Below, piece by piece: positions 6,467 to 63,674 of a stretch of DNA of 64,000 bases. The notes under the pieces are model-generated. The model was not told where the DNA came from. It ran no database searches and worked only from the letters and a program-made list of their open reading frames with translations. The DNA is from a virus: the IMG/VR virus record IMGVR_UViG_3300048834_000128, positions 1-64,000 of that record, one strand, 5' to 3'. Each line of letters opens with the position of its first letter. Position 1 is the stretch's first letter. Made by a program: the position numbers and the translations under genes.

Positions 6467-6727
6467 ATGAGAACGAAAGGAAAAAAGAGGAAGGGGAATA
6501 TTTTCAAGGAGTATTTCACCCTGGTTGAGTTGAGTAGGGCGTTCGGTTATAAGAATCCGAACAGTTACTATAGTAGTAATGGGCGACCTCTGTTTGATGA
6601 GGGGATCGGGTTTGTCGTGGAGAGGGTCTGTGAGGTGAAGGATGCTGAGATCGCCCGGTTGCGTCGGATGGTTGCGGCGTCGCTTGGCGAAGGGGAAAAG
6701 AGTGAACAAGGGGGTGGTGGGGTATGA
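6467..6727 (+). CDS. Small putative DNA-binding protein (leaderless)
   Basis: TATGTTTG at 6455-6462 directly before ATG; HTH-like TLVELSRAFGYKNPNSY. Confidence 0.55.
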   Translation: MRTKGKKRKGNIFKEYFTLVELSRAFGYKNPNSYYSSNGRPLFDEGIGFVVERVCEVKDAEIARLRRMVAASLGEGEKSEQGGGGV

Positions 6728-7704
6728 GTGTTTTGAGGACTGATAATATTGAAACCTTCAAAGGCGCCCAATACAGGGTTGTCAGAGGATATCCCGACTA
6801 TCTCGTTTCTGAATACGGGGTGATAATTCATAGGACGAAAGGGTTTGTCAAGGTACATACCAATAAGACAGGATACCGGTTCTGCAGACTCAAGGACTCC
6901 ACAGGGAAATGGATGTCCTGGTTCGTGCACCGGTTCGTCGCTACCGCCTGGATTGAAAACCCTACCCGCAAACCTACCGTCAACCATATTGATGGAGTAA
7001 AGCATAATAACGTGGTGTCGAATCTCGAATGGGCCACAATGAAGGAGCAGATTGACCATGCCCACGGTATGGGACTCATAGTTCACAAGTCCGGCCAGGA
7101 CCATTGGGCGCATGGGATAACCCTGTCTAAAGAGCAAAAAGAGAAAATGTCGCTTGCCAAGACCGGGGAACGACATCCCAGGTTCAAGGGATACTACATC
7201 ACCCCTTTAGGGAAATTCAGCAGCGTCAGAAGTGCCGGCCACGCCCACGGATGGTCGGGAGTCTATTTCAGTACCAGGTTCGCTAAGGAAATACTGAACG
7301 CTACGCCAGGATGGTCCTTTGAAGGGGATTACTCCTCGGTACAGATTAAAAACGAACTGCAAAGACGCGAAAACCCATCTGACCCTGAAATCACAAAAAA
7401 AAGAATGTCTGATTCCAAATTGGGCGAACGTCACCCCAAATTCAAAGGCTGGTACGTCACACCTATAGGCAGGTTTATAAATACCAAGGAAGGCGGTGAG
7501 GCTTACGGGATTTCAAGGGTCGGATTCTTCAGAAAATTCAACAGGGAGGTCAAAAAAGGCACCGATGGATGGACGTTTGACAGGATACCTCCGCTCGCAG
7601 TCTCCGCTCTAAGGGAAAAATTGCCCCAATTGGAACACAAGATCAAGGGACGGAATGATGCAAAATACCCGTTCACCGAAACGGGTGAACCTGAAGATCA
7701 ATAG
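6724..7704 (+). CDS. NUMOD4-HNH homing endonuclease with NUMOD3-like repeats
   Basis: VHRFVATAWIENP...VNHIDGVKHNNVVSNLEW; repeated KMSxxKxGERHPxFKGxYxTPxGxF. Confidence 0.9.
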   Translation: MSVLRTDNIETFKGAQYRVVRGYPDYLVSEYGVIIHRTKGFVKVHTNKTGYRFCRLKDSTGKWMSWFVHRFVATAWIENPTRKPTVNHIDGVKHNNVVSNLEWATMKEQIDHAHGMGLIVHKSGQDHWAHGITLSKEQKEKMSLAKTGERHPRFKGYYITPLGKFSSVRSAGHAHGWSGVYFSTRFAKEILNATPGWSFEGDYSSVQIKNELQRRENPSDPEITKKRMSDSKLGERHPKFKGWYVTPIGRFINTKEGGEAYGISRVGFFRKFNREVKKGTDGWTFDRIPPLAVSALREKLPQLEHKIKGRNDAKYPFTETGEPEDQ

Positions 7705-8538: not shown

Positions 8539-9021
8539 ATGACACAGACATTACCCGTAGTAGCAGTTTGCCTTCTTATTCTCGGAGCCATCGCCTTCAT
8601 TGTCGGGATGCTTCGCAAGAGGGCACATCAGACACCACAATCTTCGATAGATAAGTATGAAATGATTGATATGAATATCGAAAATCTGAAATCAGGCGAT
8701 ATAATGGTTCCGCACGGCACCTCTTATATAAAGATTCCTTCACCTTACTACTCAGGAAGACAAGACATCAACCCCGAATTTGCCCAAACAACAGGCGTTA
8801 CGGACGATGATTTGACGGAGTTTGAAGATACGACGGGATTTATCAAAGACGAACCGATAGAAGACCCGAGGATTGTAGAATTGTTCGGCAAGATAGGGGC
8901 ATATCAGAAACAACTCAGATATTGGAAGGGCGACGTACTTAAAGAAGCGGAATACACGGGACTTATCAATGAGTGCCTTAGAAACATCGACAAGATAAGA
9001 AAGGAGAATGACAATGGTTGA
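8539..9021 (+). CDS. Membrane-anchored hypothetical protein
   Basis: N-terminal hydrophobic helix; start placed at ATG 8539 behind promoter. Confidence 0.7.
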   Translation: MTQTLPVVAVCLLILGAIAFIVGMLRKRAHQTPQSSIDKYEMIDMNIENLKSGDIMVPHGTSYIKIPSPYYSGRQDINPEFAQTTGVTDDDLTEFEDTTGFIKDEPIEDPRIVELFGKIGAYQKQLRYWKGDVLKEAEYTGLINECLRNIDKIRKENDNG

Positions 9022-9313
9022 GGTATTATTCTGCATTACAGTATTTGTGTCAGGGTTCTTCGTTGGGTCATTTATAGATGATATCATTAAAAAGGCAAAG
9101 AAAGACGTGCAAGATTCAAAGGCGGGAATCGAGGTATGGAGAGCAAAAGTCATTACGGAGACCGAAGTGATGGAATTTGCGTTTACTGAAGCGATTATTC
9201 AGTCAGACTCGACAACTGAGTTGTTCCTGCATGGGAATACAGTTGCCTTTATACCTAACAGATACCTTGTAATGGTAGAAAGATTTGAAAACAATTTAAA
9301 TACTAATGCTTAG
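9008..9313 (+). CDS. Hypothetical membrane protein
   Basis: ORF track; N-terminal TM. Confidence 0.65.
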   Translation: MTMVEVLFCITVFVSGFFVGSFIDDIIKKAKKDVQDSKAGIEVWRAKVITETEVMEFAFTEAIIQSDSTTELFLHGNTVAFIPNRYLVMVERFENNLNTNA

Positions 9314-9656
9314 AATAGTCAGAGTCACAAATCCTTTATTGCCCAATCCGATAGAGCAGGATGTGGTTCCGCAGGTATTCACCATCCGATACAACCCTAC
9401 CGACAGAGAACAGAAAAGAAGATTCGATAGGGAGGTCGAGAAGTGCATGGAACACCTGTTTGGAATCGAACTATCATTCACAAGGGCGTTGTTTGATCCG
9501 AACGCTGACAACTTCGTAGAGGACTACAACGATATGTACAAGGTGTGGAACGAGCAGTACACCAAGACCGCAAAATGGTTGAAGGAACATGGCAAACTGA
9601 AATTCATAGTTCCGAACGAAAGATATTTTATGAACGAATTTAAACCGAATATATGA
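9306..9656 (+). CDS. Hypothetical protein
   Basis: ORF track, coupled overlaps. Confidence 0.7.
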   Translation: MLRIVRVTNPLLPNPIEQDVVPQVFTIRYNPTDREQKRRFDREVEKCMEHLFGIELSFTRALFDPNADNFVEDYNDMYKVWNEQYTKTAKWLKEHGKLKFIVPNERYFMNEFKPNI

Positions 9657-14158: not shown

Positions 14159-14833
14159 ATGGAATTTACACCCGATGACTTCAAGCGGATGATGTTCAAC
14201 GTCTTTGAAGCGGATATGGACAAACCCTTCATACATCAGTTCCCCGAACTCGCACTCTACGATGAGTTCCGAGAAAACCTCCCTCAACTCGATAGAAATA
14301 CAATAATCAAATACATCTGCTATGTCTATGACAAGAACTCCCCTTACAGAGTAAAATACAAGGACTTGACCCAAAGGAAGGTTCGTGCCATGCTCGATGC
14401 GGGATACGGACTCAACGACAAGCAGGAGTTCGAGAAACCCGTAGAAGATGTCATCCAAGGAAGGGACTATAAAGCCGCAGACATGGCGGTAGCCTTCATC
14501 AAACTGCATTGTGACCTCGAATACTCACACGTGATACTTCTTGAAGCGATGTATTTCCGTGCAATGAAGAATGTCTTTTTAGGCAACTCTGAGAAAATCA
14601 AGGAACTCAACGAAATCAAGGAATCATACACCAAGGCTCAGAACGACCTCGTTTCCAACGACCAAACCAAGGCAATGATGCAGTCGCTCTACAAATCCAT
14701 CAATCGGGACAGGATAAAACTATCTCCCGAAGATATCGCCACCTCAATAAAGGACAAAGGCGTGGAAACTACCGTAGCGGAACTGAGCGATGACGAATTT
14801 GAAGCAATGGATATGCCCGAAGATGATGAATAA
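14159..14833 (+). CDS. Probable terminase small subunit / packaging-associated protein
   Basis: Directly upstream of and overlapping TerL; helical; YICYVYDKNSPY motif. Confidence 0.4.
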   Translation: MEFTPDDFKRMMFNVFEADMDKPFIHQFPELALYDEFRENLPQLDRNTIIKYICYVYDKNSPYRVKYKDLTQRKVRAMLDAGYGLNDKQEFEKPVEDVIQGRDYKAADMAVAFIKLHCDLEYSHVILLEAMYFRAMKNVFLGNSEKIKELNEIKESYTKAQNDLVSNDQTKAMMQSLYKSINRDRIKLSPEDIATSIKDKGVETTVAELSDDEFEAMDMPEDDE

Positions 14834-17012
14834 CAAGGATATCAAGTACAAGAACATTCCCAAGTCGATACTCCTTCAATATTCTGACGGAGAAACATTC
14901 ATAGACTTCAATCTCGAAGACCCCGACCTCGATACCATCAGAGTCCCCCTGCCTAAAACACCACGTTGGGATAAGATTGACAACTTCGGACTACCTGCCG
15001 TCGAGCAGAAATTCAACATTCAGCAGATTCCGGCAAAGATTATAGAACTGCAGGAGGAACAGAACGAAAAAGGAGAATTTCTCACCCAGGAGGAGATTTG
15101 GGATAAGATTGAAACCAACATCGACTATTACAAGGATGAAATCAAGTACATAAAGGCTCAGTGGAAACACATACTTGAAGGATATTGGTTCTTTAACAAC
15201 GGAAAGGCGACCTATATCGACGGGTGGCACTATGCCTATCTAAACTTCTTTGAACTCGATATCGGACTGCCTGAGTACCGTGACCGTGACAGACGATTCT
15301 TTCACTTTGCGAGATTCTGCAAACTCGACCCTTCATGCTTCGGATTCATATACCCCAAACACCGACGTGAAGGGGCTACCTATAAGACGAGTTGCATACA
15401 CTACTTCATCATCAGCCTACTCATAAGGGCGAGGGGCGGTATTCAATCCATGACGGACGATAGCGGACGTGACGTATTTCAGAAGCACGTTATTGATCCG
15501 TGGAGTCAGATGCCGTTCTTCCTAAAGCCGAATCATGACGGAGGTGACAACCCGAAAGCAAAACTCAGGTTCTATCCATCGGCTTCAAGAGGTAAGATTG
15601 GAATAAAGAGAAGGTCGAACAAGTCATTGAGAAGTGAGATTGAGTATCGTGCCAGTGGCGAACTTGCATTTGACGGAACAAAATTATTCTTCTACCACCA
15701 TGAGGAGGTCGGCAAAACCAAAGATGTAGACATCAATAAGCGTTGGGAGGTCGTACAACTGACCCTATCCACGGGAGGAAACTCAAAGGTTCACGGGTTC
15801 TCGATACATACTTCTACCGTCGGAGAAATGGATGCGGGAGGCGGTCAGCAGTTCCGAGAACTATGCGACTCAAGCATGTGGGGACAACGGAACGCAAACG
15901 GACAGACCGCTTCTGGACTCTATATCCTATTCATACCTGCATGGGACGGACTTGAAGGATTTGTCGACGAATATGGAATGTCCGTAATAGATACCCCTAC
16001 TCAGCAGCAGTCGGACTTCATAGGGAAGAAAATCGGTGCAAGACAATTCATAGAGAACACCCTTGAACACTTGAAGACACTCCCTAAGAAAGACAAACTG
16101 CTTCAGTTCCAACGTGAACACCCGACGACTTTCAGAGGGTGTTTCAGGTCGAACATCAAGTCACCATTCTTCAATATGCAGAAACTTGAGGAACGCATGG
16201 ACGAACTCAGGGTTGACAGAACCGCCGTAATCCACGGGGATTTCAAATGGAAGAACGGAGTAAGGTTCGGAACGGTCATATTTGAAGAACACGAAAATGG
16301 CAGGTTCAGATTATCTAAACGACTCGACTCGTCGGAATCAAACAAGATTACATGGGACTCATCACTTGAGAGTTGGACAGCCCACAACGTCTACTATTGT
16401 GCAGGTGCCGACCCATATCGTTCAGACAAAACCAAGAGCTCCAAGCAGTCATTGGGAGGAGGTGCGGTCTATTGGGGGCACGATATAAGAAAAGACCCTT
16501 TCGAGAAACCGATTGATGATTGGGAGTCGGCAAGATTCATTTGCACCTACCTTTACAGACCTCCCACTACCGACGACTTCTGTGAGGATATGCTCATGAT
16601 GTGCTGGTACTACGGATGCCCGATGTATCCCGAAACCAACGTCGAGAAGGTAAGGGAGTACTTCACAAGGAACGATTGCGAGTTCATGCTCGTACACCAA
16701 TACAAGAAAGGCAAATACGACGAGCAAGGTGGTCAGCAGACCGATGAAAGAACCAAACAGAGGATATTTCAACTTCTTCAGATACAAGTGGAAAGGCACT
16801 GCCATAGGGAACGTCACAACGACCTTCTCAATCAGATTTACGAGATTAAGGGAGTAGACGACATGACTAACTATGACCTATTTACCGCAGCAGGTTATGC
16901 AATGCTCGGGGCGGACAACTATCTCGACGACCTTAACAAGGAAGTGCAGAATACCAAACCCGACGGAGGTAATCCAATGCAGGACTACTACGGAAGGTTT
17001 TTCGGCAAGTAA
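14823..17012 (+). CDS. terL: Terminase large subunit (crAss-like type)
   Basis: Walker A-like KHRREGAT, Walker B FYHHEEVGK, nuclease AGADPY...YPETN...YDL; start likely 14823/14826. Confidence 0.9.
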   Translation: MMNNKDIKYKNIPKSILLQYSDGETFIDFNLEDPDLDTIRVPLPKTPRWDKIDNFGLPAVEQKFNIQQIPAKIIELQEEQNEKGEFLTQEEIWDKIETNIDYYKDEIKYIKAQWKHILEGYWFFNNGKATYIDGWHYAYLNFFELDIGLPEYRDRDRRFFHFARFCKLDPSCFGFIYPKHRREGATYKTSCIHYFIISLLIRARGGIQSMTDDSGRDVFQKHVIDPWSQMPFFLKPNHDGGDNPKAKLRFYPSASRGKIGIKRRSNKSLRSEIEYRASGELAFDGTKLFFYHHEEVGKTKDVDINKRWEVVQLTLSTGGNSKVHGFSIHTSTVGEMDAGGGQQFRELCDSSMWGQRNANGQTASGLYILFIPAWDGLEGFVDEYGMSVIDTPTQQQSDFIGKKIGARQFIENTLEHLKTLPKKDKLLQFQREHPTTFRGCFRSNIKSPFFNMQKLEERMDELRVDRTAVIHGDFKWKNGVRFGTVIFEEHENGRFRLSKRLDSSESNKITWDSSLESWTAHNVYYCAGADPYRSDKTKSSKQSLGGGAVYWGHDIRKDPFEKPIDDWESARFICTYLYRPPTTDDFCEDMLMMCWYYGCPMYPETNVEKVREYFTRNDCEFMLVHQYKKGKYDEQGGQQTDERTKQRIFQLLQIQVERHCHRERHNDLLNQIYEIKGVDDMTNYDLFTAAGYAMLGADNYLDDLNKEVQNTKPDGGNPMQDYYGRFFGK

Positions 17013-17059: not shown

Positions 17060-19555
17060 ATGAACCTTAATGCACCAACTGCCGACGGACAAGGCATATA
17101 CGGATTTCCGAGACACGACGTTCCTCCCGCAACCAAACTCAAGAAGGAATGGAATATCCAATACTGCCAAGCGATACATTACCTTTATAGGAACGGACTT
17201 GCGGGGATAAACTTCTCCGATGTAAACCTTTTCGCACGTTACAGACAATACGGAAGCGGTGTGCAGGACCCCTATCAGTACATGGACCGACTCGGTATCA
17301 ATCACCCAAGCGTGCCGACACTGCCCAATCAGCAGACCGTCGCACAAGGTGAATTAGGTCCTGGAAGTCAGCCTTCCGACCACGCAAGAAAGGGTTGGAT
17401 GGACATTAACTTTGAAATCCTATCGGTAGCACCCAACTTCAAGAACATAGTACTCGGAATGTTCGAGGAAATCGAACATGACATTTACGCTGACGGAGTT
17501 GATGACAAGTCTTCTACCGAACGTGAGATGATGAAATGGGCGTTATGGGTAGAGAAGGAGATGCAGGGATATATGGCACAGATGGAGGAAGCGGCGGATA
17601 TCAAGATACCGAGGTCAAACTATGTGCCCGAAACCATGCAGGAACTTGAAATGTTCTCCTCACTCGGAGGATTCAAACTCAGAAGCGAGATAAGCATTGA
17701 AGCGGCAATCAAGTACACCATGGATATTTCCGAAATGAAGGAGATAAAGCGTAAGGTCATTCAGGACTTATTTGAACTCGGAGTCGCATGCACAAAGGAC
17801 TATCTCGACCCCGACACTCAGAAAGTCAAGGTGAGATACTGCGACCCCGCACTCATGGTTCTTCCATACACCAATCAGGATGAATTTACAAACATGCCGT
17901 TCGCAGGGGAGTACACCTTCTATACCATCGCTCAGATGCGTTCGCTCGTGGACGAGAACGGAAAGCAATGTTTCACAAACGACGAACTTGAGATAATCGC
18001 AAAAAGCGTACTCAATCAGTTCTCAAATCCTCAGACATTCTCGAACTGGACCATAGACCCCGTTACGGGATGGTATCTTTGGGATAATTTCAGGGTATGC
18101 GTACTTGACTGCGAGTTCAAATCCGATGACTACAAATACATTACCGAACGTGTAAACAATGAGGGCGAAACCGTCGTACATGAAGACGAGTTCGGACGTG
18201 TCAAGAATAGCGACAAACGCAAGACCCACGTCACCAAGACCCTAATGGTCTACAAATGCAAGTGGATAGTGGGTACGGTATATGCTTGGGATTACGGACA
18301 TCAGTTCAACGTGCCAAGACCTACGCCTTCTCAGGCAAACCTTAGTTTCCACGCCTACAAGATGAAGGCAGGTTCCTATGTCAAGAGAATGATTCCGCTA
18401 TTGGATTCGATTCAACTTGCATGGTTGAGACTTCAGAACCTTATCGCCAAGGCAGCACCTCCCGGACTTGCAATCGAGGTAGGTTCACTCAATAACGTGA
18501 CGGTCGGAAATCAGAAACTCAATACCCTTGACATTCTAAAAATCAGATCCATTACCGGAGATTTGCTATATCAGGTCGGAACCCACAGGTCATATATGCC
18601 GACCGCCACCAATTACAAACCTATTCAGGAGTTGCAGGGTGGGGTAGGAGGACAGATGCAGGAGATTTTCTTCCTTATCAACTCAAATATCGAGATGATT
18701 AGGCAGATTATCGGAATAAACAGGGTTGCCGACGGAAGTTCACCGACTGCCGACCAATTGGTAGGGGTAACGGAACTTTCTATGCAGGCTGCACAGAACA
18801 CCCTCAAACCGTTATATTATTCGTATCTCACAATTAAAGAGAGGTTGTGCCGAAATGTTGCACAGAGAATACAACTGATTGTCAAACACAACGGAATGTA
18901 TGAATTGTCCTATTATAAGGCGTTGGGTAAGAATATTACCGAAACGCTCAAGATAGGTGCCGAGGTCAACAATGCCATGTTTGGAATAAGGATAGAGGCA
19001 AGACCCGACGCAGGGGAGAAGCAAATCATACTTCAGGCTGCACAACAGGCGATGTCGGTTGGTAGGCAAGGTGTCCCGATGATAAGCATGAGTGACTATC
19101 TTATGATAAACTCATTTTTGCAGAGAGGGATGCTCAAATTCGCACAGGCATACCTTGCCCATAAGGAACAGCAGACAATCAAACGTCAGGAAGAACAGCA
19201 ACAGGCGGCAATCGAAGCACAGGGTCAGCAGAACATGATGCTTGAACAGACAAAGGCACAGCAACAGCAGCAGTTAATAGAATTGCAGAATAATCAGCTG
19301 ATGTTACAGGAGAATGAGAAACGCAAGACTCTGATGCTCCAGGAAGAAGAAAAGCGGAAGACAATCCAATTACAAGGTAGTCTAAAGATGAATGAAATCC
19401 GACTGACCAAAGGGCTGGACCTTGAGAACGACATCATCACAAAAGGAATGGAAATCGAGCAGCAGGACAAGGAACTTGAGGTTCACGAAGAACTTGAGGA
19501 GAAGAAAATCAAGGCTATAAAGGATAAACCGACACCAACAACACCAAAGAAATGA
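17060..19555 (+). CDS. Portal protein (crAss-like)
   Basis: 831 aa following TerL; KVRYCDP, IRQIIGINRVADGS motifs; Q-rich coiled-coil C-terminus. Confidence 0.85.
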   Translation: MNLNAPTADGQGIYGFPRHDVPPATKLKKEWNIQYCQAIHYLYRNGLAGINFSDVNLFARYRQYGSGVQDPYQYMDRLGINHPSVPTLPNQQTVAQGELGPGSQPSDHARKGWMDINFEILSVAPNFKNIVLGMFEEIEHDIYADGVDDKSSTEREMMKWALWVEKEMQGYMAQMEEAADIKIPRSNYVPETMQELEMFSSLGGFKLRSEISIEAAIKYTMDISEMKEIKRKVIQDLFELGVACTKDYLDPDTQKVKVRYCDPALMVLPYTNQDEFTNMPFAGEYTFYTIAQMRSLVDENGKQCFTNDELEIIAKSVLNQFSNPQTFSNWTIDPVTGWYLWDNFRVCVLDCEFKSDDYKYITERVNNEGETVVHEDEFGRVKNSDKRKTHVTKTLMVYKCKWIVGTVYAWDYGHQFNVPRPTPSQANLSFHAYKMKAGSYVKRMIPLLDSIQLAWLRLQNLIAKAAPPGLAIEVGSLNNVTVGNQKLNTLDILKIRSITGDLLYQVGTHRSYMPTATNYKPIQELQGGVGGQMQEIFFLINSNIEMIRQIIGINRVADGSSPTADQLVGVTELSMQAAQNTLKPLYYSYLTIKERLCRNVAQRIQLIVKHNGMYELSYYKALGKNITETLKIGAEVNNAMFGIRIEARPDAGEKQIILQAAQQAMSVGRQGVPMISMSDYLMINSFLQRGMLKFAQAYLAHKEQQTIKRQEEQQQAAIEAQGQQNMMLEQTKAQQQQQLIELQNNQLMLQENEKRKTLMLQEEEKRKTIQLQGSLKMNEIRLTKGLDLENDIITKGMEIEQQDKELEVHEELEEKKIKAIKDKPTPTTPKK

Positions 19556-19758
19556 AGCATATAATCACCATTGCGGACAAGATTCGCGAAAACGGACACC
19601 AGATAGTCGTGTCTAAGAAAGAGAAGGAGGTAAGACTCTATCTCGGGAATGATAAGAAGCAGGTCATATTATCGGTAGAAGGGGAACTCACCACCGAACA
19701 GAAGGAAGCACTTCACTATTATTTAGTCACCAATCTGAACCCTGCAAAAGAAAGTTAG
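19552..19758 (+). CDS. Hypothetical protein
   Basis: ATGA overlap with portal. Confidence 0.6.
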   Translation: MKHIITIADKIRENGHQIVVSKKEKEVRLYLGNDKKQVILSVEGELTTEQKEALHYYLVTNLNPAKES

Positions 19759-19794
19759 AACAGTTCTTACTTGTGTATTTATAAAGTGTGTACT

Positions 19795-19827
19795 AATCCT
19801 CGGGAATAAAATCTCGGGGATTTTTTT
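19795..19827 (+). terminator. Intrinsic terminator
   Basis: AATCCTCGGGA-ATAAAA-TCTCGGGGATT + T-run. Confidence 0.8.
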
Positions 19828-19869
19828 AAATAAATTTGGCAATTACAATACGATGTAATACATTTGCCA

Positions 19870-19950
19870 TAGATAACCACGTTTTTAACATATTCTGAGA
19901 ATTAGAGTATTTTTCATTTTAGACTGCCCTCTTTCATCGGAGGGCTTTCT
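19870..19950 (+). ncRNA. Candidate ~80-nt sRNA or attenuated leader
   Basis: Promoter TTTG(19835)...TACATTTG(19859-66), no ORF, ends in hairpin GCCCTCT/GGAGGGC + TTTCT. Confidence 0.5.
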
Positions 19951-19961
19951 ATTGAACAACA

Positions 19962-20297
19962 ATGGGCATGAAGACAAAAGAACAAGCAATAGAAGAAAGA
20001 TTCGACCGATTCTTGGAAGAAAACGGATTCGAGTTCGATGTCAAGAAGGTGGCAAGCAGCCATTACAGACTATTGAGCGAAATGGGAGAAAAGATGTTTG
20101 ACGTCTATCCTAAGAGCGGAAAGGTGTTCACCTTCGATACCCATAAGTACCATGACCTGAAAACCTTTGAGAACGCACTCTTGTTTGTAAGCGATATGAT
20201 GAATGGTGTCAAAAGGGATTACGATTCGGCTATGATTAAGCAATGCGTCGAATTTCTAAGAAAAAGAGGTTATACGATAATCGAACCGAAAAAATAA
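19962..20297 (+). CDS. Hypothetical protein
   Basis: ORF track. Confidence 0.7.
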   Translation: MGMKTKEQAIEERFDRFLEENGFEFDVKKVASSHYRLLSEMGEKMFDVYPKSGKVFTFDTHKYHDLKTFENALLFVSDMMNGVKRDYDSAMIKQCVEFLRKRGYTIIEPKK

Positions 20298-20433
20298 TTT
20301 GGAAATTAAAAAATCATTCCTATATTTGCCCTCGTGTTTAGGGTATTAGACACAGATTACATAGAAAGTATTCAAATCCATAGAATATTCGGAAATGTCC
20401 TCGCTTAATACCCTAAGTGGGGCTTTTCTTTTT
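20298..20433 (+). promoter_or_regulatory. Promoter plus kissing-loop attenuator leader
   Basis: TTTG 20298, TATATTTG 20321-28; hairpin 20334-53 with loop GGGTAT; terminator 20399-20433 with loop ATACCC. Confidence 0.65.
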
Positions 20434-20440
20434 AAGTCAA

Positions 20441-20750
20441 GTCCTACACTCGGATATGATGTATGAGCCACAGGACGCGTTTAATCATATCTTAAAGCGG
20501 TAAAAGTATGCTGCGAACCGCAATCGGTTGACACACTCCGAAAGGGGCAGGGAGAGCCGAAGGACAGTGACAGGGTGTTCAATCGGAAACGATAGCCTTG
20601 ACAGTCTCCCTTGCTAATGGATAAGAACATCACATTGGCTAATGCGAAACTCCCGACTTCTCAAGTCAATTATAAAAGCATTAGTGTCCAATCTCTTTAT
20701 GTCTATTTATTTAGACGTTTAGGGAAGGGACACATTTTGCCGCTCATCAG
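20441..20750 (+). ncRNA. Candidate large structured ncRNA
   Basis: At least 8 consecutive stems, two GAAA tetraloops, complementary loops GATATGA/TCATATC. Confidence 0.6.
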
Positions 20751-20802
20751 CCCTCATTCTAAGTCAATTATATATTCTTACTATACTATATATACTATAA
20801 TA

Positions 20803-21030
20803 ATGAAAATAAAAGTAAAAATTGTCAAAAAAAGCGATAATTCCGAAACGGAAGTCGAGATGACACCGAAGCAGTATAAACAATATTTTTCAAGTAAGTA
20901 TGGTAAGGTTAAAAAACCAAAGAAGAAGCGACTGAAGAAATCTTTTACAGATGTAAAAACAGGTCGTGCTATCGGAGGAATTAAGAATATGAATGCTGAA
21001 TTTAGGAGAAAAATGATGCTCGATGACTAA
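20803..21030 (+). CDS. Small very basic protein
   Basis: MKIKVKIVKK...KKPKKKRLKK; ATG at 20803 (upstream extension in ORF track is the structured RNA). Confidence 0.6.
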   Translation: MKIKVKIVKKSDNSETEVEMTPKQYKQYFSSKYGKVKKPKKKRLKKSFTDVKTGRAIGGIKNMNAEFRRKMMLDD

Positions 21031-21053
21031 AAAACACCCTAAAAGTCAGTCGT

Positions 21054-21083
21054 AACAACGTATTTTCTTTCTGTATATATTTG
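21054..21083 (+). promoter_or_regulatory. Late promoter AACAAC-N16-TATATTTG (scaffold/MCP)
   Basis: Consensus match. Confidence 0.75.
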
Positions 21084-21106
21084 CAGACAGATAATTACAG
21101 AATGTT

Positions 21107-22306
21107 ATGACAGAACAAAATGACCCTGCTACAGAAAGAATGATGGCCGAGTTTATGGAAGGTTTGGAAATTCCGAAAGAGAATCCGACACCGACACCAG
21201 AACCGACCCCTACTCCTGAACCTGAACCAAATCCCGAACCTACACCTGAGCCAGAGCCGAATCCAGAGCCAACGCCTGAACCGACTCCCGAACCCGACCA
21301 GATTGCCGACGATATAAAACTTCGTGCAATCAACGAGATGCTCGGAACAAACTTCACTTCAATAGAAGATGCTGGTTATATCAGAAATACCTTGAATGAG
21401 GTAGACTCATTAAGGGAGGTACAGAAGAAATATAGGGAGATTGAGGAAACTCCCATTGCCAAATTTCACAATGACAAACTGAGGGAACTCAATACGTTTG
21501 CGGAAACTACTGGCATAGATTCACCATCGGTATTCGAGAAGATAAAGCATTTCGACGCTACCGATAAGAAAGACCCTATCGAGGCAATCGTCCTCGCAGA
21601 GATAATCAAAGACCCTTCACTCGCCACCAAAGCCGATTTGCTTAGAAAGTCAATCGCAAGGGAGTATAAGACGACCATTCCTAATGAAGAAGATTTGGAT
21701 GGAATCGAACTTGAAAGGGCGAAGGAGGATGCTGAACTCGAGTCATTCCGACTTGAGAGAAACGCAGCGAAGGCACAGAAGGAGATATCCGACGTGCTTG
21801 ACAAGGTTAAGGCGGGAACGCCTAACGAAACAATAAGGCAGATTCAGGAAAGGAGAGAGGTCATACGTGATTCGTGGGACAAGTATCTTACTGAAAAGCA
21901 AGAATTGGTTTTTGCCAAGATTCCAGTACAAGTACCGAAGGGAAAGGATGGTAACGGCAACGAAACATTCGAGGTTATAGACAATATCACATTGTCAAAG
22001 GAGGAGATGAAGGAGGCAGTACAGGCTGTCGTCAAGGAGGCTGAACGTAAGGGACTCGAACTGAATCAGGAGAATTTCCTGAAACTCGTTCCGAAACACT
22101 ACGACAGAATCATTGCAAAGAACATCCACAAAGTCACCACGTCAATCTCTTCAAAAAAAGAGGCGCAGATTCGTCTGGAACTTGAAAAGAAGTATTCCAA
22201 CCCGTCAAACCTCAAGATTGAAACCAAAGTACCCGCAGGTAATGACAAACCTAAGACCGTGGATGATATCCTCGATCCTATGTACAAAGCCCAAGGTTAC
22301 ATGTAG
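21107..22306 (+). CDS. Probable capsid scaffolding protein
   Basis: Acidic and helical, PE/PT repeat near N-terminus (~21185-21297), immediately upstream of MCP. Confidence 0.6.
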   Translation: MTEQNDPATERMMAEFMEGLEIPKENPTPTPEPTPTPEPEPNPEPTPEPEPNPEPTPEPTPEPDQIADDIKLRAINEMLGTNFTSIEDAGYIRNTLNEVDSLREVQKKYREIEETPIAKFHNDKLRELNTFAETTGIDSPSVFEKIKHFDATDKKDPIEAIVLAEIIKDPSLATKADLLRKSIAREYKTTIPNEEDLDGIELERAKEDAELESFRLERNAAKAQKEISDVLDKVKAGTPNETIRQIQERREVIRDSWDKYLTEKQELVFAKIPVQVPKGKDGNGNETFEVIDNITLSKEEMKEAVQAVVKEAERKGLELNQENFLKLVPKHYDRIIAKNIHKVTTSISSKKEAQIRLELEKKYSNPSNLKIETKVPAGNDKPKTVDDILDPMYKAQGYM

Positions 22307-22361: not shown

Positions 22362-23747
22362 ATGGCAAACATTCCACAAATTGCGGCAACCTATCAGAAT
22401 AACATAGTGTCCGCATTCGATGTCCACAAACCGGACAAACTTTCTAAACTCTTCCGTCGTTATGGCGACCAAGGTGCATCATGGTATCTGAAATTGGCAC
22501 AAATGGGATTCGTCCTTCCTGTCGCTCAGATGCAATATTCGCACTATGAAGACCAGTTGAAAAACCCTACATTCCAAGCGAGAGCCGGTGTAGCACAACC
22601 AGCAGCAGGTGCAACCATGGATATCACATTGGCAGCAGTCGATGTAGATACCAATAACAACTTCTATCCACGTCTTAACGACATCGTTAATTTCAAGGGC
22701 GGGCAGAAAGGTTTCATCCAGTCAATCGACGTAACCACTCCATCTCAGCCGGTTCTTACCGTTGCTCCATTGGGTGCAGGTGCATCATACAGACTTCCTG
22801 CGGTTGATGCCAATGAGGAAATGTCACTTACCACAAACGCCTTCGCAGAGAAGACAGGTCAGCCTAAAGGTATCGTTCCAAGCGCTATCGAAAGGGTGAA
22901 CTACACTCAGATCATGAAGGAGACATTGGAAGTGAGCGGTTCTGAGCAAACCAACCAGACATGGATGACAGGCGGATGGGCTAATTTCAACGGAGTAACC
23001 ATGGCAGACGGTCAGGTTGCATCAGGCGATACTTGGTACAACGTAAACTTCCTTGACATGGAATGGAGAATGAACAAGCAGATTTCAGGAGCATTGCTCA
23101 TGGGGCTTGCAGGTGACGGTACATTGGTTGACGATAGCGGTAATGCCGTTCAGACAACCCAAGGTGTCGTTCCTACCATTCAGGCGTTAGGTAACAACCA
23201 GACTTACACTCCGGGTTCATTGTCGGTAACGGACTTCGACGCATGGAGCCGTATCCTTGACAGGAACTACGCAGGTGACTACGTTATGGGTTCATTCTCT
23301 AAATCATTGCAGGATGAATTGGAGAACCTATTGGTTGCATACCTTGCCAACACAAACATCCAGTTCGCAGACCCTACAGTTGAGAAAGCCGTAAATATCG
23401 GATTCACAGCATTGAAGAAATCCCAAAGGAACTTCATGTTCGACGTCGAGATGGCATTCAGCGACAGACAGACATTCGGTATCACAGGTTCAATCTACGA
23501 AGGAGCAGGTATGTTCATTCCGGTATTGAAGAAACGTGACGCGAAATCAGGTCAGATGGTCGACAACATCGGAGCACGTTACAAGGAGAAGAACGGATAT
23601 TCAAGAAAAATGGAAATCTGGTCAGTAAGCGGTTCCGGTCCTGGTATGAAAGTAACAGACATCGACAAATCCGCTACCTACATGAGATGCGATATCGGTG
23701 CCCATATCTTAGGTGCAAACCAGATGATATGGTTGCAACCGGCCTAA
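22362..23747 (+). CDS. Major capsid protein (crAss-like)
   Basis: 461 aa; LFRRYGDQ, NYTQIMKETLEVSGS, TQGVVPTI, GANQ motifs; strong A-rich leader and terminator. Confidence 0.85.
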   Translation: MANIPQIAATYQNNIVSAFDVHKPDKLSKLFRRYGDQGASWYLKLAQMGFVLPVAQMQYSHYEDQLKNPTFQARAGVAQPAAGATMDITLAAVDVDTNNNFYPRLNDIVNFKGGQKGFIQSIDVTTPSQPVLTVAPLGAGASYRLPAVDANEEMSLTTNAFAEKTGQPKGIVPSAIERVNYTQIMKETLEVSGSEQTNQTWMTGGWANFNGVTMADGQVASGDTWYNVNFLDMEWRMNKQISGALLMGLAGDGTLVDDSGNAVQTTQGVVPTIQALGNNQTYTPGSLSVTDFDAWSRILDRNYAGDYVMGSFSKSLQDELENLLVAYLANTNIQFADPTVEKAVNIGFTALKKSQRNFMFDVEMAFSDRQTFGITGSIYEGAGMFIPVLKKRDAKSGQMVDNIGARYKEKNGYSRKMEIWSVSGSGPGMKVTDIDKSATYMRCDIGAHILGANQMIWLQPA

Positions 23748-25190: not shown

Positions 25191-25475
25191 ATGAAGAAAA
25201 AAATAGGCATATTTCTGAACACCCCTACGGGTTCGTTCGTAAAGGTGTTCTTGGGTTCCATGGTAGGATACTATCTGAGCACCTTCCTTATGGAGGATAC
25301 CGACCCGTTCACCTTTGACAGGAAATCCATAAAGGCAATCATTGCGGGAGGAATCGCCCCTATTCTGCCGATAATCACCAATTTCATAAACAGGCAGGAT
25401 ACGCGTTACGGAAAATCACCAAAACCTACAAACCTTTCTCCCGATCCGTTAAACCCCGATAAGTATAAGTCATGA
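25191..25475 (+). CDS. Putative holin
   Basis: Two hydrophobic segments, ...NRQDTRYGK tail, ATGA overlap with endolysin. Confidence 0.65.
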   Translation: MKKKIGIFLNTPTGSFVKVFLGSMVGYYLSTFLMEDTDPFTFDRKSIKAIIAGGIAPILPIITNFINRQDTRYGKSPKPTNLSPDPLNPDKYKS

Positions 25476-28268: not shown

Positions 28269-28680
28269 TCTGAGTTCATGCACAAGTCAAAAGGCATGGA
28301 TAAAACGTGGTGAGTCTAAGGGATGGTTACAGACCAAATCCGACACGTTAATCATCAAAGACACGATTCAAGGGTGGAGATATGACACTACGGTTCAATT
28401 CCTTTGGGTTCACGATATAGACACCCTAATAACCTCAAATGGCAAAGATAGTGTAGTTACCATAGTAAAGTGGAAAGAACGCACCATACGCCAAATAAAG
28501 ACCGAAAAAGACACGATAGTAGAGAGTAAGATAATTACCAATGAGATTCCGATATTAAAAATCATCAAACCGAACTTTTGGCAACGTCTATGGTGGCTAT
28601 GGATAATACTTACATTCATACTGACAATTTGGTTAGTGAAGTATTTAAGAGAGGATTACAACGTAAATAAAGAATTATAA
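28216..28680 (+). CDS. Putative unimolecular spanin (OM lipoprotein with C-terminal TM)
   Basis: Lipobox LSS-C, beta-rich DT repeats, C-terminal TM LWWLWIILTFILTIWLV. Confidence 0.6.
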   Translation: MKITINKASLAVLFVIVSLSSCTSQKAWIKRGESKGWLQTKSDTLIIKDTIQGWRYDTTVQFLWVHDIDTLITSNGKDSVVTIVKWKERTIRQIKTEKDTIVESKIITNEIPILKIIKPNFWQRLWWLWIILTFILTIWLVKYLREDYNVNKEL

Positions 28681-28682
28681 TT

Positions 28683-29126
28683 ATGGAATACCACGAAATT
28701 ATCAACGCAAAAGACTTAAGAGTAGGCAATCTTATACTGAATAATATGTTTGTCGATGATTGGGTAACAATAGAAGTAGACCAATTATTTATCTACATAG
28801 CATCGGTAGACAATAATTTATTTAACAGATTCAGTAAAGGGATAGACTTAAGCGAATACATAATGGGGAAACTTGAGCAAGTCAAGAGAAAATCAGATTA
28901 TGTATTTGTATTGTCCGAAAACGACAATTGTTATTTGGAATTAGAAGACCACAATTGGGATGAACCTTGTTTTGATGTATTTATCAATGGGGTATATGTT
29001 ACGTGTGTGTATACCTTACATGGTTTACAGAATCTTTACAAGGCACTCTACAATGAAGAACTCGATGTAGGTAAAATAGACAAGTATAAAAAAGAGAAAA
29101 ATGAAGACAAAACCGAAAAGGCATAA
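28683..29126 (+). CDS. ELxIGN...HxLQNLY family protein (YopX-like)
   Basis: DLRVGNLI...LHGLQNLYKALYNEEL. Confidence 0.65.
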   Translation: MEYHEIINAKDLRVGNLILNNMFVDDWVTIEVDQLFIYIASVDNNLFNRFSKGIDLSEYIMGKLEQVKRKSDYVFVLSENDNCYLELEDHNWDEPCFDVFINGVYVTCVYTLHGLQNLYKALYNEELDVGKIDKYKKEKNEDKTEKA

Positions 29127-39700: not shown

Positions 39701-40132
39701 AAGGATGGTCAGTTGTGGACGGGCAATACCAATGCGATAAGAAATAGTTTCTTCGGGGTGACATATCCTTCAAAAGTGAAGACCGTTTCAAACATGGATT
39801 TCGCCAAGATAAAGGTATTCTTAGCGGTTGCAATCTATTCAAACAAGACATGGTTCAGTCCTAACGACGGAGATATCAACGTACTGCCTTCGGTAACGTA
39901 TCCTCAAGGGATGACATCAAGGTTGCTCGAGTCGAAGTTCAGGTGGAAGGAAGGTGTTTCTTATAGCGAATACATGAGGGATTTGCTGACTCCGAACACT
40001 ACCAACCCAATCATCAACGGAAGGAAACTGAGGGGAGAATGCCTCGTGCAGGAAATCCGCAACGAAGATACCGACGAAGTGATACTCTATTCCGTGATAG
40101 TTCACTCCACTCCGAGCGAAATGTCCAAATAA
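36722..40132 (+). CDS. Tail stabilisation / muzzle protein (P22 gp10-like role)
   Basis: 1136 aa; GGIDSD, LFWTDN...PRQIN, YRYIYLDNEPS, YGCMHPES...YFFD, KEG..Y, GRKLRG motifs. Confidence 0.8.
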   Translation: MSDIKDQRYFWGGIDSDSDFRNVMPEDYISAHNIVSGLSKIGGVTNFKGNTLVPYSLPTGNNTCIGTLRNIKENSIIYWVYNDQGNHSILEYYCDTNSILPILEPDAALGFTTDFLGFTLDHKIHSANIINDLLFWTDNNVSPRQINKKSARAFLNQTPPSADVFPYDNLIATSLVEAYKTQFLETIKYKPESQPLIDLRYDPTRKTNYLREKMVQVRYRYIYLDNEPSRWSDGSYVSLPTGVENINGPDYNMIANNYLRVFVNTGHPNVKEIELAFRFGNTEAWGRLDTPIRKYDNDNQRLLSDFTVVTYDFYNDSVLIIQPDEIDNYDAVPLKSKTQEIVDNNILVYANNEEGYENPDLDASITYYNELTDMGEPELDDFKYVLDTTNYLLIPMNKGELTVGCTLTFFANYFAPVSDFYISYAFQEDDFINWPYNFQESLYQMMVNSLVPPVSPSTVNKVASYNYLGTDYAAITIDNASIDDLTVLTPFKKIPSWKKGAWHPFGIVYKDIQGRDGGVLTGQSLALYNPYLPEIFPLTSLDNQFAYKSQARITINHQPPIWAHTYEIVYATNDLLKYTQFAVKDNPTQDVNGNYNIKCDYIIDYINDVRVDGSLDFQFETGDKLRFIANTDNYCSMYVEAKVLAFDTSTNVLTVSAYSSSQITAGMGTPTQEGTLVELFQNKTLATQEDRPYFAIGETYSVLNAGTATRAHQGNLVNQNTTLGIPAQLSLNRGDCYIYRRYFDDNTLETMVESENFSDVYASRNIDISSLYVVIPNNRTRRYEQGLRHSGRYFPNTNVNNICRFGGSDTDTLNTMYGPINRIMAIGYTLKCLQTKKNTSIYIDRNMIFNADGTYQLATTDKVFGNKNPSELDYGCMHPESVVADDRQMYFFDVNTGSFIQDSANGMIPISDYKARTFFRDISNLIKNNPDIYVYSGVDNANDYINVTFIDTGLVPAIEDTTIVYQPSSNRWKTFTDYLPEYYGSNALVIAMFKDGQLWTGNTNAIRNSFFGVTYPSKVKTVSNMDFAKIKVFLAVAIYSNKTWFSPNDGDINVLPSVTYPQGMTSRLLESKFRWKEGVSYSEYMRDLLTPNTTNPIINGRKLRGECLVQEIRNEDTDEVILYSVIVHSTPSEMSK

Positions 40133-40160
40133 CAACAAACATATTAATTTCTTACATTTG
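40131..40160 (+). promoter_or_regulatory. Late promoter AACAAC-N16-TACATTTG (cargo proteins)
   Basis: Consensus match. Confidence 0.75.
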
Positions 40161-40186
40161 TACTCTATAAAGCAATCTGAGGACAA

Positions 40187-41038
40187 ATGATACCAATATT
40201 AGAAACTCTTACCACCGTGCTACCCCAAGTCAAGTACGGAATTGCTCCACTTGCAATAATGGCCGCAGCACAAGCCATACCTTTCGTAATCAATACCGCC
40301 AAAGGAATTTCTCAAGGATATAAGGCGAAACAACTTGCCAAAACTCCAAGGCCCGAGTATCAGATCCCGGACGCTTTAATAAAGTCCGTGAACAACGCCA
40401 AGTACATTTCCTCAATGAGGGAATTGCCAGGACAGAACCTTATGGAAGGAAGAATTGGGCAGAATTTGTCAAGAGGTATTCAGGACTTGAAGGATGTCAG
40501 CTCATCTCCGGCAGAACTTGCTGCGAACGTATCGAGAATGTACTCGGGTTCAAACAATGCTATAAATGATATCGGAATGGCTGCAGGACAGAATTGGCTA
40601 AACAATCAGGCGGGATTCCGTCAGGCATTGGGTCAGTTGGCAGGTGCGCAGGACAGGCAGTGGCAGATAAACAAGTTCGACCCTTATGCTAATGACATGG
40701 CTGCAAGTGCGGCACTAAGAGAGGGTGCGTTCAGAAATATATCGGCAGCAGGACAGAATATCGCAAGCGGAATTAGTGGGTATGGAAACATGAAATTCAT
40801 GGAGAATCTTTATGGTGGCGGCGACAATTCAATCGGAAGCGGAACGTCTGCAAAGACATTCGACACGGGCAATTCGGGCAATGCCCCTAATATATCATTG
40901 GGAGAAGCCATCGGAAGTGCCAACAATATGAATGGGCCGAATCCGAACGGAGGTCTTGACATAAACGCAATGATGCAGTATATTCAGAACAGAAACAATA
41001 CCATGAGTCCTCAATATCAGAAACCATTACCAAGATAA
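40187..41038 (+). CDS. Ejection / internal virion protein
   Basis: A/G/N/Q-rich, RPEYQIP motif, follows muzzle gene. Confidence 0.65.
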   Translation: MIPILETLTTVLPQVKYGIAPLAIMAAAQAIPFVINTAKGISQGYKAKQLAKTPRPEYQIPDALIKSVNNAKYISSMRELPGQNLMEGRIGQNLSRGIQDLKDVSSSPAELAANVSRMYSGSNNAINDIGMAAGQNWLNNQAGFRQALGQLAGAQDRQWQINKFDPYANDMAASAALREGAFRNISAAGQNIASGISGYGNMKFMENLYGGGDNSIGSGTSAKTFDTGNSGNAPNISLGEAIGSANNMNGPNPNGGLDINAMMQYIQNRNNTMSPQYQKPLPR

Positions 41039-61789: not shown

Positions 61790-62733
61790 TAGTAGTTTGT
61801 AATTAAAACCTCTTCAACGGCATTTCTACCATTTGGTTTGCAATTTACAAGTCTTGGAGCATTTACAATAGAAATTTTGAACATATTACCCTTATATAAA
61901 TCTCTTATGAAAGGTGTATTGCTATTTGAAACCATTATTTTCACTCCTTTTTTATGAAGTGACTTGCAAAACTCAGAAAGTTCCCTTTGGTTTTGTTCTG
62001 TAAATCCATCAACTGCATACTTTGTAAATGATGTATCAGTAGTAGGGTGATATGGGGGATCAAAATAAATGAAATCGCCATTTTGCGGACTTAGTTTTGA
62101 ATAATCACCATATCTAACATCTACATTCTGCAATGCTTTATTACAAAGCAAAAGATTGTCCTTTTGGCAAATTCCAGGATTTACATATTTACCCATAGGC
62201 ACATTAAATTCACCTTTTGAATTGACACGATATAAACCATTAAAACAAGTCTTATTCAAATATATCATTCGTGCTGCAATTTCAATAGGGTCTTCTAAAT
62301 TGTGCTGTGAACGAATATGATAATAATATACTTCATTGTGTTTTGCTTGATGTTTTTCAAGAATTTCAATCAACTTTTCAACGTCCTTTTGAATGACCTT
62401 GTAAGTTAAAATCAAGTCCATATTAGCATCATTTAAAACAGCATTATTTAGTTTTGATTGCAATTCAAAAAACAATGCACCTCCACCAACAAAGCCCTCC
62501 CAATATGTATTAAAGTGTTCGGGTAATCTTGATGTCAGTTCGTGCATTATACTGCGCTTACCGCCAACCCATTTTAAAAAGGGGGTTGCTTTATCTCCTT
62601 GCTCTTCATCTTCTGGTATATCAGACAAGTCCTTTGTATTCACATTTGAAAACCTTTCAAGTGCTTCCGAAAATGGCATATCAAGGCTGAATGCAGGATC
62701 GTGTTTTTTTGGGTTTGATGTTTGTTTTGACAT
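61789..62733 (-). CDS. Dam-like N6-adenine DNA methyltransferase (D12 class)
   Basis: PFLKWVGGKR, EGFVGGGA, YLNKTCFNGLYRVN, DPPY, EVLITNY. Confidence 0.93.
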   Translation of the reverse strand: MSKQTSNPKKHDPAFSLDMPFSEALERFSNVNTKDLSDIPEDEEQGDKATPFLKWVGGKRSIMHELTSRLPEHFNTYWEGFVGGGALFFELQSKLNNAVLNDANMDLILTYKVIQKDVEKLIEILEKHQAKHNEVYYYHIRSQHNLEDPIEIAARMIYLNKTCFNGLYRVNSKGEFNVPMGKYVNPGICQKDNLLLCNKALQNVDVRYGDYSKLSPQNGDFIYFDPPYHPTTDTSFTKYAVDGFTEQNQRELSEFCKSLHKKGVKIMVSNSNTPFIRDLYKGNMFKISIVNAPRLVNCKPNGRNAVEEVLITNY

Positions 62734-63674
62734 TATGCGTTAGCGATTAGTTGTTGATATTTGATTCGTTTTCCATCGCAACTATTCAGTAGCAAATTAA
62801 ACCTATTTTCTTGTGATATTTCTCTTGTATTATATCTAAACGCAAATTCATTCAAATAGTTGTTAAGGTGTTTAGGACTTACGAAATGGTAAATTCCTAT
62901 AATACCACGTTTTAAAAGCGAGAAAAAACCCTCTGCGGTGTTAGTGTGAACTTCACCTTTTACATACTCACCATGTCCATGTTTTACTATTTGGTGATTG
63001 TAAAGCCATTTTACTGAATTATAAACCCTATACTCATCGGTCATTAGTTTTGTTCCTAAAACCACATTGTTAGTAATAAAATTACCTATTGCTTTGCTAT
63101 CGACTGAATCAGATTTTTGAACCTTTACAATTCCTTTTCTTTCTACAACTGCAAGGACTGGAGTTTTAGTCTTTGTGCTTCTACCTTGTGTATTTTCAGT
63201 TTTCTTAGATCTATGTTTGTTCTTTTCTTTGCCACCAATGTATGTTTCATCAGCCTCAACGATATTTTTCAAAGGAGCATTGAAAGCCTTTGTTCTACTT
63301 GCGTGGCGTAATCTATGAAGCATAAACCAAGCGGTTTTTTGTGTTACATCCAAATCTTTGCCTAACTGCAAAGAACTGATACCTTTTTTGTGTGAGGTTA
63401 TTAGATAGATAGCAACAAACCATTTTTGAAGTGAAATTTTAGTACCCTCGAAAATGCTACCAACCTTAGCAGTAAATTGTTTACGACAATCTTTGCATTT
63501 AAACCTTTTTCCATCTGAAAATGCGTAAACTTTCTCATTTCCACAATGAGGGCAATAAATACCATCTTTCCAACGCATTTGTTTTAGGTGTTCAAGGCAA
63601 ACTTTCTCATCAGAGAAATAATTCATAACTTGCATTAAACTATTGAAATTCAGGTTTTTGCTATCTTTTTTCAT
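62733..63674 (-). CDS. IS1595-family DDE transposase
   Basis: Zn ribbon CPHCG...CKDC, KKGISSLQL...TQKTAWFMLHRLR, EADETY, TDEY..Y, HTNTAEGFFSLLKR, YLNEFAFRYN. Confidence 0.96.
   Translation of the reverse strand: MKKDSKNLNFNSLMQVMNYFSDEKVCLEHLKQMRWKDGIYCPHCGNEKVYAFSDGKRFKCKDCRKQFTAKVGSIFEGTKISLQKWFVAIYLITSHKKGISSLQLGKDLDVTQKTAWFMLHRLRHASRTKAFNAPLKNIVEADETYIGGKEKNKHRSKKTENTQGRSTKTKTPVLAVVERKGIVKVQKSDSVDSKAIGNFITNNVVLGTKLMTDEYRVYNSVKWLYNHQIVKHGHGEYVKGEVHTNTAEGFFSLLKRGIIGIYHFVSPKHLNNYLNEFAFRYNTREISQENRFNLLLNSCDGKRIKYQQLIANA

Follow-up and report, generated by a model that had tools for sequence, protein, structure and literature searches.

In phage lambda, the late leader is made of promoter pR', a 194-nt '6S' RNA and terminator tR'. 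Plasmids pT181 and pIP501 carry antisense-RNA transcription attenuators, and phage T7 has RNase III processing hairpins between its genes. Phage-associated RNAs that multimerise via kissing loops also occur in nature, as documented by the cryo-EM study of ROOL and GOLLD (10.1101/2024.12.08.627333).

The locus described here belongs to an uncultured phage from wastewater, and its central part (20434-20764) is a predicted orphan accessory RNA, structured, ~330 nt long and without a known family. Positions are those of the window, by which we mean the whole stretch of DNA analyzed: 64 kb out of an IMG/VR virus record that is 75,878 bp long and has direct terminal repeats. Examination of the literature yielded no description of such an RNA.

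As in the lambda late leader, a promoter, a short RNA and a terminator lie ahead of late structural genes, and read-through is needed beyond them; however, no Q-like factor or qut site was identified here, and the read-through product starts with a folded RNA of 330 nt. The leader of the RNA recalls the pT181 and pIP501 attenuators in its loop-loop contact by an intrinsic terminator and in its alternative, extended pairing, but both loops are on one transcript, no counter-transcript promoter was seen, and the regulated product is non-coding. Like the RNase III sites of T7, the locus has long, irregular intergenic hairpins in which structure is kept rather than sequence; the difference is that three of them stand in tandem and are accompanied by a 5' domain that is conserved and has tetraloop hairpins. 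The pRNA of phi29 also has two complementary loops per molecule and a gene in the head/packaging module. In contrast, the RNA under study has no Rfam match, is twice the size of the pRNA, is absent from most relatives of the phage, and coexists with a standard large terminase. Finally, the RNA shares with GOLLD and ROOL that it is carried by a phage, is non-coding and has several hairpins, GNRA loops and complementary loops; like them, it is optional among related phages. It differs from them in size (~330 nt vs about 580-800 nt), in matching neither model, in having far fewer conserved long-range contacts, and in being known from a single phage lineage.

A cassette between the portal and scaffold genes

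Parts of the phage sequence are present in activated-sludge and wastewater metagenomes. Comparison with GenBank phages, made with both DNA and capsid protein, gave zero matches. The genome encodes a crAss-type muzzle domain farther downstream. An IS1595-family transposase gene (62733-63674) and a gene for a 326-aa HNH/NUMOD3 homing-endonuclease-like protein (6724-7704) are also found in the phage. The location of the RNA between portal and scaffold, as given in the preliminary description, is correct; the gap, however, also holds two small ORFs and a short promoter-terminator unit. The features of the region are the following:

14790-17012: large terminase gene (740 aa; PHROG 6681, E 8e-82)
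17060-19555: portal gene
19552-19758 and 19962-20297: two small ORFs between the portal gene and the RNA element
19831-19950: post-portal promoter-RNA-terminator unit
20321-20328, plus strand: Bacteroidota-type -7 promoter box TATATTTG, detected by motif enrichment
20334-20433, plus strand: predicted leader, with a hairpin (20334-53) followed by an intrinsic terminator (stem 20399-20422 and U tract; terminator scan, z -3.4)
20441-20498, plus strand: domain 1, with abutting hairpins 20441-76 and 20477-98 whose loops are complementary (pairs checked)
20452-60 with 20484-92, plus strand: alternative pairing of domain 1, a nested 9-bp helix
within 20516-20611, plus strand: domain 2, with hairpin 20516-29 and CUCC-GAAA-GGGG at 20536-47 (pairs checked)
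20549-55 with 20605-11, plus strand: long helix of domain 2, enclosing AAGG/CCUU and AUCG-GAAA-CGAU (20582-93)
20613-20736, plus strand: domain 3, with tandem hairpins 20613-39, 20640-83 (inner 20655-67) and 20684-20733, then AUUUUG
20737-20764, plus strand: 3' tail up to the putative right border of the module (direct repeats, contig divergence)
20769-20799, plus strand: TA-rich tract (TATATATAC / TACTA units), unstructured, ahead of the ORF (Tandem Repeats Finder)
20803-21030, plus strand: 75-aa Lys-rich orphan gene, a separate module
21076-21083, plus strand: promoter box TATATTTG of the scaffold gene itself, preceded by a clade-wide GTAACAAC element
21107-22306: scaffold-like gene
22362-23747: gene for an SU10-type major capsid protein

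The 5' part of the scaffold-like gene (21180-21282) contains Pro/Glu/Thr-rich tandem repeats with a 30-nt period, in 2.5 copies. The 111-aa ORF upstream of the RNA has 2 relatives in 1.8 billion representatives; the possibility that it encodes a HicA-like RNA binder was dropped (Pfam E 0.21, unnamed neighbors in the Atlas).

Boxes of the TAnnTTTG type are enriched on the plus strand of the phage sequence (46 vs 18.7 expected), and the identical TATATTTG box is found before the RNA (20321), the scaffold gene (21076), tRNA-Trp (24878) and a gene at 25191. Judging from the box, the transcript probably starts near 20334. The leader that follows harbors an 11-nt perfect inverted repeat. Its terminator loop, AUACCC, pairs with the loop of the first leader hairpin, and the contact can be extended to 11 bp (20338-48 with 20406-16), an alternative pairing that is mutually exclusive with the intrinsic terminator. 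On sequence grounds, 20334-20433 has the features of a terminator/anti-terminator leader, and the attenuator control put forward in the preliminary description agrees with this promoter-leader arrangement upstream of the RNA. In the natural variant described below, 20344 T>A is matched by 20410 A>T so that the pair is kept, and this covarying pair supports the leader loop contact; changes at 20349 and 20403 turn G-U pairs into A-U pairs.

A 23-codon ATG frame (20395-20466) extends across the terminator into the beginning of the RNA body. Its reading as a leader peptide is doubtful because the variant (20438 C>A) has a stop at codon 15.

At the opposite end, the terminator scan detected no clear terminator for the RNA, and none between the RNA and the 75-aa ORF; hence the RNA may simply continue into the ORF and the scaffold gene. 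The AT-rich (C)TATA-repeat tract that had been noticed after the RNA was located at 20769-20799.

Fold and natural variation of the RNA

The helices listed in the preliminary description (79 pairs) are all present and complementary at their positions, as checked with a script, with the detail that the long hairpin spans 20684-20733, its start having been given one base off (20685). The 7-nt loops of the two adjacent hairpins, GAUAUGA (20453-59) and UCAUAUC (20485-91), are perfect complements.

When folding was compared with shuffled controls, 20434-20764 had a z of -4.5 on the plus strand and -1.5 on the minus strand, and a longer region (20298-20805) gave -4.73 vs -1.61. In 93 other 331-nt windows of the genome, the mean z was -0.56 (sd 1.23, minimum -4.28); the element is thus at the extreme of the genome's distribution but is not unique. 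Windows 28601-28931 and 40041-40371 show z values of about -4.2 to -4.3 on the plus strand (20 shuffles each), on a par with the element.

Nearly all the excess of the body comes from 20613-20736 (z -7.4 on the plus strand vs -3.5 on the minus strand), and the leader 20334-20433 (z -3.4) is the other stretch that stands out by energy. The 5' third (20434-20515, z -1.2) and the central third (20514-20614, z -0.06) are ordinary compared with shuffles. That the region is folded was correct, but the depiction of a large, highly structured RNA over ~310 nt was overstated: the thermodynamic signal is that of three hairpins plus the leader.

In domain 1, the nested helix has an MFE of -11.8 kcal/mol, and the two hairpins have -9.8 plus about -5.8 for the kiss. 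A loop-loop kiss in the body is possible according to these predictions, but the same complementarity of 7-9 nt can form the nested helix instead. Inspection by eye revealed no 11-nt tetraloop receptor for the GAAA loops.

To examine natural variation, Logan contigs of four runs were aligned to 20250-21150. One wastewater contig (run X4, depth 17.5) covers 20261-20794, with 534 nt aligned and 40 differences (~92% identity), and shorter contigs from other studies have some of the same differences. Pairing statistics rest on this one variant lineage and were scored on the 79 local pairs mentioned above. The main observations are listed below:

(i). The body has 28 substitutions, 17 of which affect unpaired bases; 7 pairs persist, 2 of them by two-sided changes. 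Two pairs are broken (20562 and 20658) vs 9.2 ± 2.2 expected for random placement (P = 0.0004), and the probability of at least two double changes is 0.022. One double change, at 20692/20725 in domain 3, turns U-A into C-G. The other, at 20582/20593 in domain 2, turns A-U into C-G, a reading that depends on an adjacent 1-nt insertion. As a check of covariation, the kept pairs and the two double changes speak for the fold, within the scope of a single lineage.

(ii). In domain 2, the change at 20546 turns U-G into U-A, and that at 20562 breaks one pair. In domain 3, 14 positions are changed, the sole broken pair is that at 20658, and the change at 20698 adds a pair.

(iii). Pairs at 20615, 20617, 20629 and 20639 are kept via G-U. 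The opposite strand would have A-C mismatches, so these changes are tolerable only for an RNA of the plus strand.

(iv). For the MFE structure of the whole region, 6 pairs are broken vs 14.6 expected (P = 0.0005); when each is folded by itself, variant and reference have equal MFE values. The long-range closing helix of the MFE structure (20496-504 with 20736-44) is unsupported, since two runs carry 20742 G>T, a change that disrupts it.

(v). Identity to the variant is 96% in the leader, 96.2% in domain 1, 92% in domain 2, 89% in domain 3 and 88.5% in the 75-aa ORF (34 differences in 297 nt). Domain 1 is the most conserved part, and its complementary loops are invariant in the one variant. From this comparison, the 5' part appears conserved in sequence and the 3' part in structure.

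(vi). The only long frame (20617-21030, 137 codons) is put out of register by a 1-nt deletion at 20676, present in two runs, which indicates that the stretch is non-coding, as had been assumed; in the relative, gene callers give 75 aa.

The substitution pattern of the variant shows that selection preserves the fold of a plus-strand RNA and not a reading frame.

The Lys-rich ORF that follows (20803-21030) exists as described, with 75 aa, a pI of 10.2 and 23 K+R. It has one homologue, 81% identical and with conservative changes, and paired indels in the variant restore its reading frame; it is a real gene, probably separable from the RNA. PHROG and Pfam comparison gave no family for it. Its interpretation as an HNH remnant was rejected since a PHROG HNH match (E 0.0024) was unsupported by Pfam or by comparison with the HNH protein of a relative (L006, see below).

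A second contig of run X4 (988 nt, depth 48) has only 20765-20794 in common with the window, and its sequence to the left is unrelated; a further contig of the same run extends rightward from there into the ORF. In some genomes, therefore, the ORF appears behind a different upstream sequence. This is weak evidence for an ORF that can occur independently of the RNA and for a module border around 20765. The putative border coincides with a direct repeat, AAGTCAATTATA, whose copies are at 20663-74 and 20761-72; of 100 shuffles, 6 also contain a duplicated 12-nt stretch. Another repeat, TC-TT-TAAGTCAA, is found at 20427-40 and 20754-67 (14 nt, 86% identical, 327 nt apart).

Several high-depth contigs of run X4 match only 20765-20794 or 21029-21081 and diverge on one side. 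Both stretches look like junctions of module exchange among related phages.

The preliminary description had also considered a ribonucleoprotein made of the RNA and the 75-aa protein. The apparent occurrence of the ORF behind other upstream sequences speaks against it, as do the different rates at which ORF and RNA diverge.

The portal-scaffold slot in related phages

Around 80 relatives were found in IMG/VR via the capsid protein, and most have a portal-scaffold gap of 30-40 nt. In L016 and L018 the gap is 160-177 nt, with nothing in it but a promoter, an RNA of ~60 nt and a terminator. An ORF-free insert of 400-700 nt is found only in the window, in group A (L001 = L004, and L005) and in group B (L003, L014 and L006). 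Capsid homologues at 79% and 69% identity are known as proteins, and further genome and metagenome scans with the capsid alignment returned already known contigs or nothing. Because the RNA is absent from close relatives, it is an optional, lineage-specific cassette in a variable portal-scaffold slot that serves as an accessory-module hot spot.

Comparison of the RNA region with the relatives by blastn and nhmmer gave zero matches. A self-written, LocARNA-style structure-aware aligner was then applied to the bodies of the window, group A and group B. Alignment of the window with group A scored below shuffles, and groups A and B showed no signal; the window and group B gave a z of about 3.8, with helices inconsistently aligned. 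Covariance models for domain 3 and domain 2, made with the window as sole input, produced only self-matches across 90 sources. No other copies of the RNA were detected in the genome or in ~840 kb of the relatives' loci, a pattern scan gave 0 matches in IMG/VR and GTDB genomes, and the relatives' loci had no Rfam match at E<=1.

Group A has a leader of its own. In L001 (8623-8722), a GCGGAAU upstream of the terminator complements the terminator loop AAUUCCGCU over 7 nt, extendable to 13; the 13-nt pairing excludes the terminator, and an ORF-free body of ~300 nt follows. The counterpart in L005 is at 8851-8949, and the two leaders differ by one double change and two G-U changes. Compared at the level of predicted elements, the layout of group A parallels that of the window, with unrelated sequence.

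In group B, L006 carries a 111-aa gene of HNH type (9046-9381; CxxC...HH motif, Pfam HNH E 0.026). Compared with L003, the gene amounts to 330 bp inserted cleanly where the ORF-free body meets the scaffold promoter.

Two other elements are found in the slot. Directly after the portal gene, a very basic ORF of 47-50 aa with a C-terminal GQG is present in L005 (8448-8591), L006 (8484-8636) and L003; such GQG-ending ORFs occur in groups A' and B and are absent from L001 and L016. The post-portal unit of promoter box, ~60-80-nt RNA and intrinsic terminator is found in every member of the clade, even those without the large insert (L016, 3095-3190; L018, 3020-3120; L001, 8443-8560). The unit may represent a conserved small RNA or else a late leader similar to lambda 6S.

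Possible nature of the RNA

Comparison with known RNA families agrees with the novelty claimed in the preliminary description. No Rfam match was found over 20434-20800 at E<=10, and the whole window compared with Rfam 15 at gathering score gave tRNA-Trp only. Likewise, ARAGORN with default settings found no tRNA or tmRNA; a minus-strand 'tRNA-Leu' with a 336-nt intron, obtained at an 80% threshold, was taken as spurious. Models of group I and group II introns (RF00028, RF00029 and related) gave no match at E<=10. The intron reading also fails because the portal gene, the scaffold gene and both small ORFs are each whole, and relatives that lack the insert show gene ends identical to those of the window phage. 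Concerning a type III toxin-antitoxin RNA, there is no tandem repeat in 20434-20764, and the adjacent ORF has no family. No support was found for a ribozyme.

The reading that we prefer, with middling confidence, is that 20434-20764 is a discrete RNA that acts as RNA, the non-coding body of a rightward transcript; we think this more likely than a mere 5' leader. Transcription would start at the promoter box at 20321 and proceed rightward. Most polymerases would stop at the conditional terminator (20399-20433), whose loop would pair with that of the upstream hairpin. Read-through would yield an RNA of ~400 nt that opens with a protective 5' hairpin, and its 3' end, made by termination or trimming, would probably lie at the 20684-20733 hairpin and UUUU. 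The sequence-conserved 5' third, with its two complementary-loop hairpins, may recognize another RNA, a second copy of itself, or a protein; a scan for targets in trans found no enriched complement of the conserved loop in the phage. The 3' block of three hairpins, fast-evolving but structure-conserving, would stabilize and end the RNA.

Other explanations were considered in the light of the same evidence:

(i). The RNA might act in cis as the long and structured 5' leader of an operon made of the 75-aa ORF and the scaffold and capsid genes, where it would set mRNA stability, processing or translation. The lack of a terminator between RNA and ORF fits this idea, as do the conditional terminator upstream, a feature of leaders, and the fact that the equivalent body of groups A and B reaches straight into the scaffold promoter region. 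We nevertheless consider it rather unlikely. The scaffold gene owns a consensus promoter, the start of the ORF lies in the unstructured TA tract, which no prediction pairs with the body, the ORF apparently stands behind different upstream sequence in run X4, and conservation is higher in the RNA than in the ORF.

(ii). The hairpins might be independent mRNA-end elements (processing or stabilizer hairpins, weak terminators) without a joint higher-order function. This would account for an energy signal that comes from three separate, irregular long hairpins and for a variant that supports no long-range helix, in a neighborhood rich in promoter-hairpin-terminator units. It would leave unaccounted for a 5' third that is the most conserved in sequence and is not a simple long hairpin, as well as the two GAAA tetraloop hairpins and the complementary loops, which are foreign to such sites; moreover, relatives manage without these elements. 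We regard the proposal as improbable.

(iii). A decayed mobile element, intron- or MITE-like, of which the hairpins are leftovers bounded by direct repeats ending in TAAGTCAA, seems very unlikely to us. The 14-nt repeat at 20427-40 and 20754-67, presence or absence among relatives, and a homing HNH gene inserted beside the equivalent element in L006 are compatible with such an origin. However, the RNA lies outside any gene and its flanking genes are intact, group I and II models are unmatched at E<=10, the searches for a further copy in the genome, in the ~840 kb of relatives' loci and in IMG/VR by pattern scan were negative, selection still preserves pairs, and a 12-nt repeat occurring twice is also obtained in 6/100 shuffles.

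(iv). A packaging or self-assembling RNA, with loops that pair between molecules as in the phi29 pRNA or the ROOL and GOLLD cages, would fit the abutting hairpins with perfect 7-nt loop complement, invariant in the variant, the adjoining portal gene, and the natural occurrence of kissing-loop multimers in phage-associated RNAs (10.1101/2024.12.08.627333). Its probability is very low all the same: the phage has an ordinary large terminase of 740 aa, close relatives package without such an RNA, the Rfam models of pRNA, ROOL and GOLLD are unmatched, and a nested helix is available to the same bases. The packaging RNA suggested in the preliminary description is unsupported.

(v). Least credible of all are a ColE1-type primer RNA or origin, also suggested in the preliminary description, and a coding region: a 137-codon open frame (20617-21030), the AT-rich tract and a sigma-70-like minus-strand match (20828-20800, set aside as the wrong promoter type for this phage) would favor them, but the frame is shifted at 20676 in two runs, 19000-22250 holds no minus-strand promoter of Bacteroidota type (the nearest minus-strand TAnnTTTG box is at 22253), the DnaB and DUF6291 genes map to the other strand at ~66.7-68.9 kb, ~46 kb from the RNA element, and the pairs kept via G-U indicate an RNA of the plus strand.

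A structural speculation deserves mention, although we give it very little credence. The abutting hairpins of domain 1 might stack end to end, in which case the loops could not meet within one molecule and would pair between molecules, forming head-to-tail rings or chains. If true, the phage would make a small RNA-only assembly, akin in principle to the ROOL and GOLLD cages and to the pRNA ring, and such an assembly would arise when the kissing-loop terminator is read through.

Returning to the discrete RNA that we favor, gene-free stretches of phage genomes are often dismissed as spacers, and this one is under selection for RNA pairing. At present its value is that of a single orphan RNA, a well-defined candidate for experiment. 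Since the layout recurs in sister phages whose sequence is unrelated, such fast-evolving accessory RNAs may form a class among the wastewater and freshwater phages of Bacteroidota type. If a target were found, be it a host factor, a defense system or the late mRNAs of the phage itself, the RNA would represent a new type of phage RNA effector.
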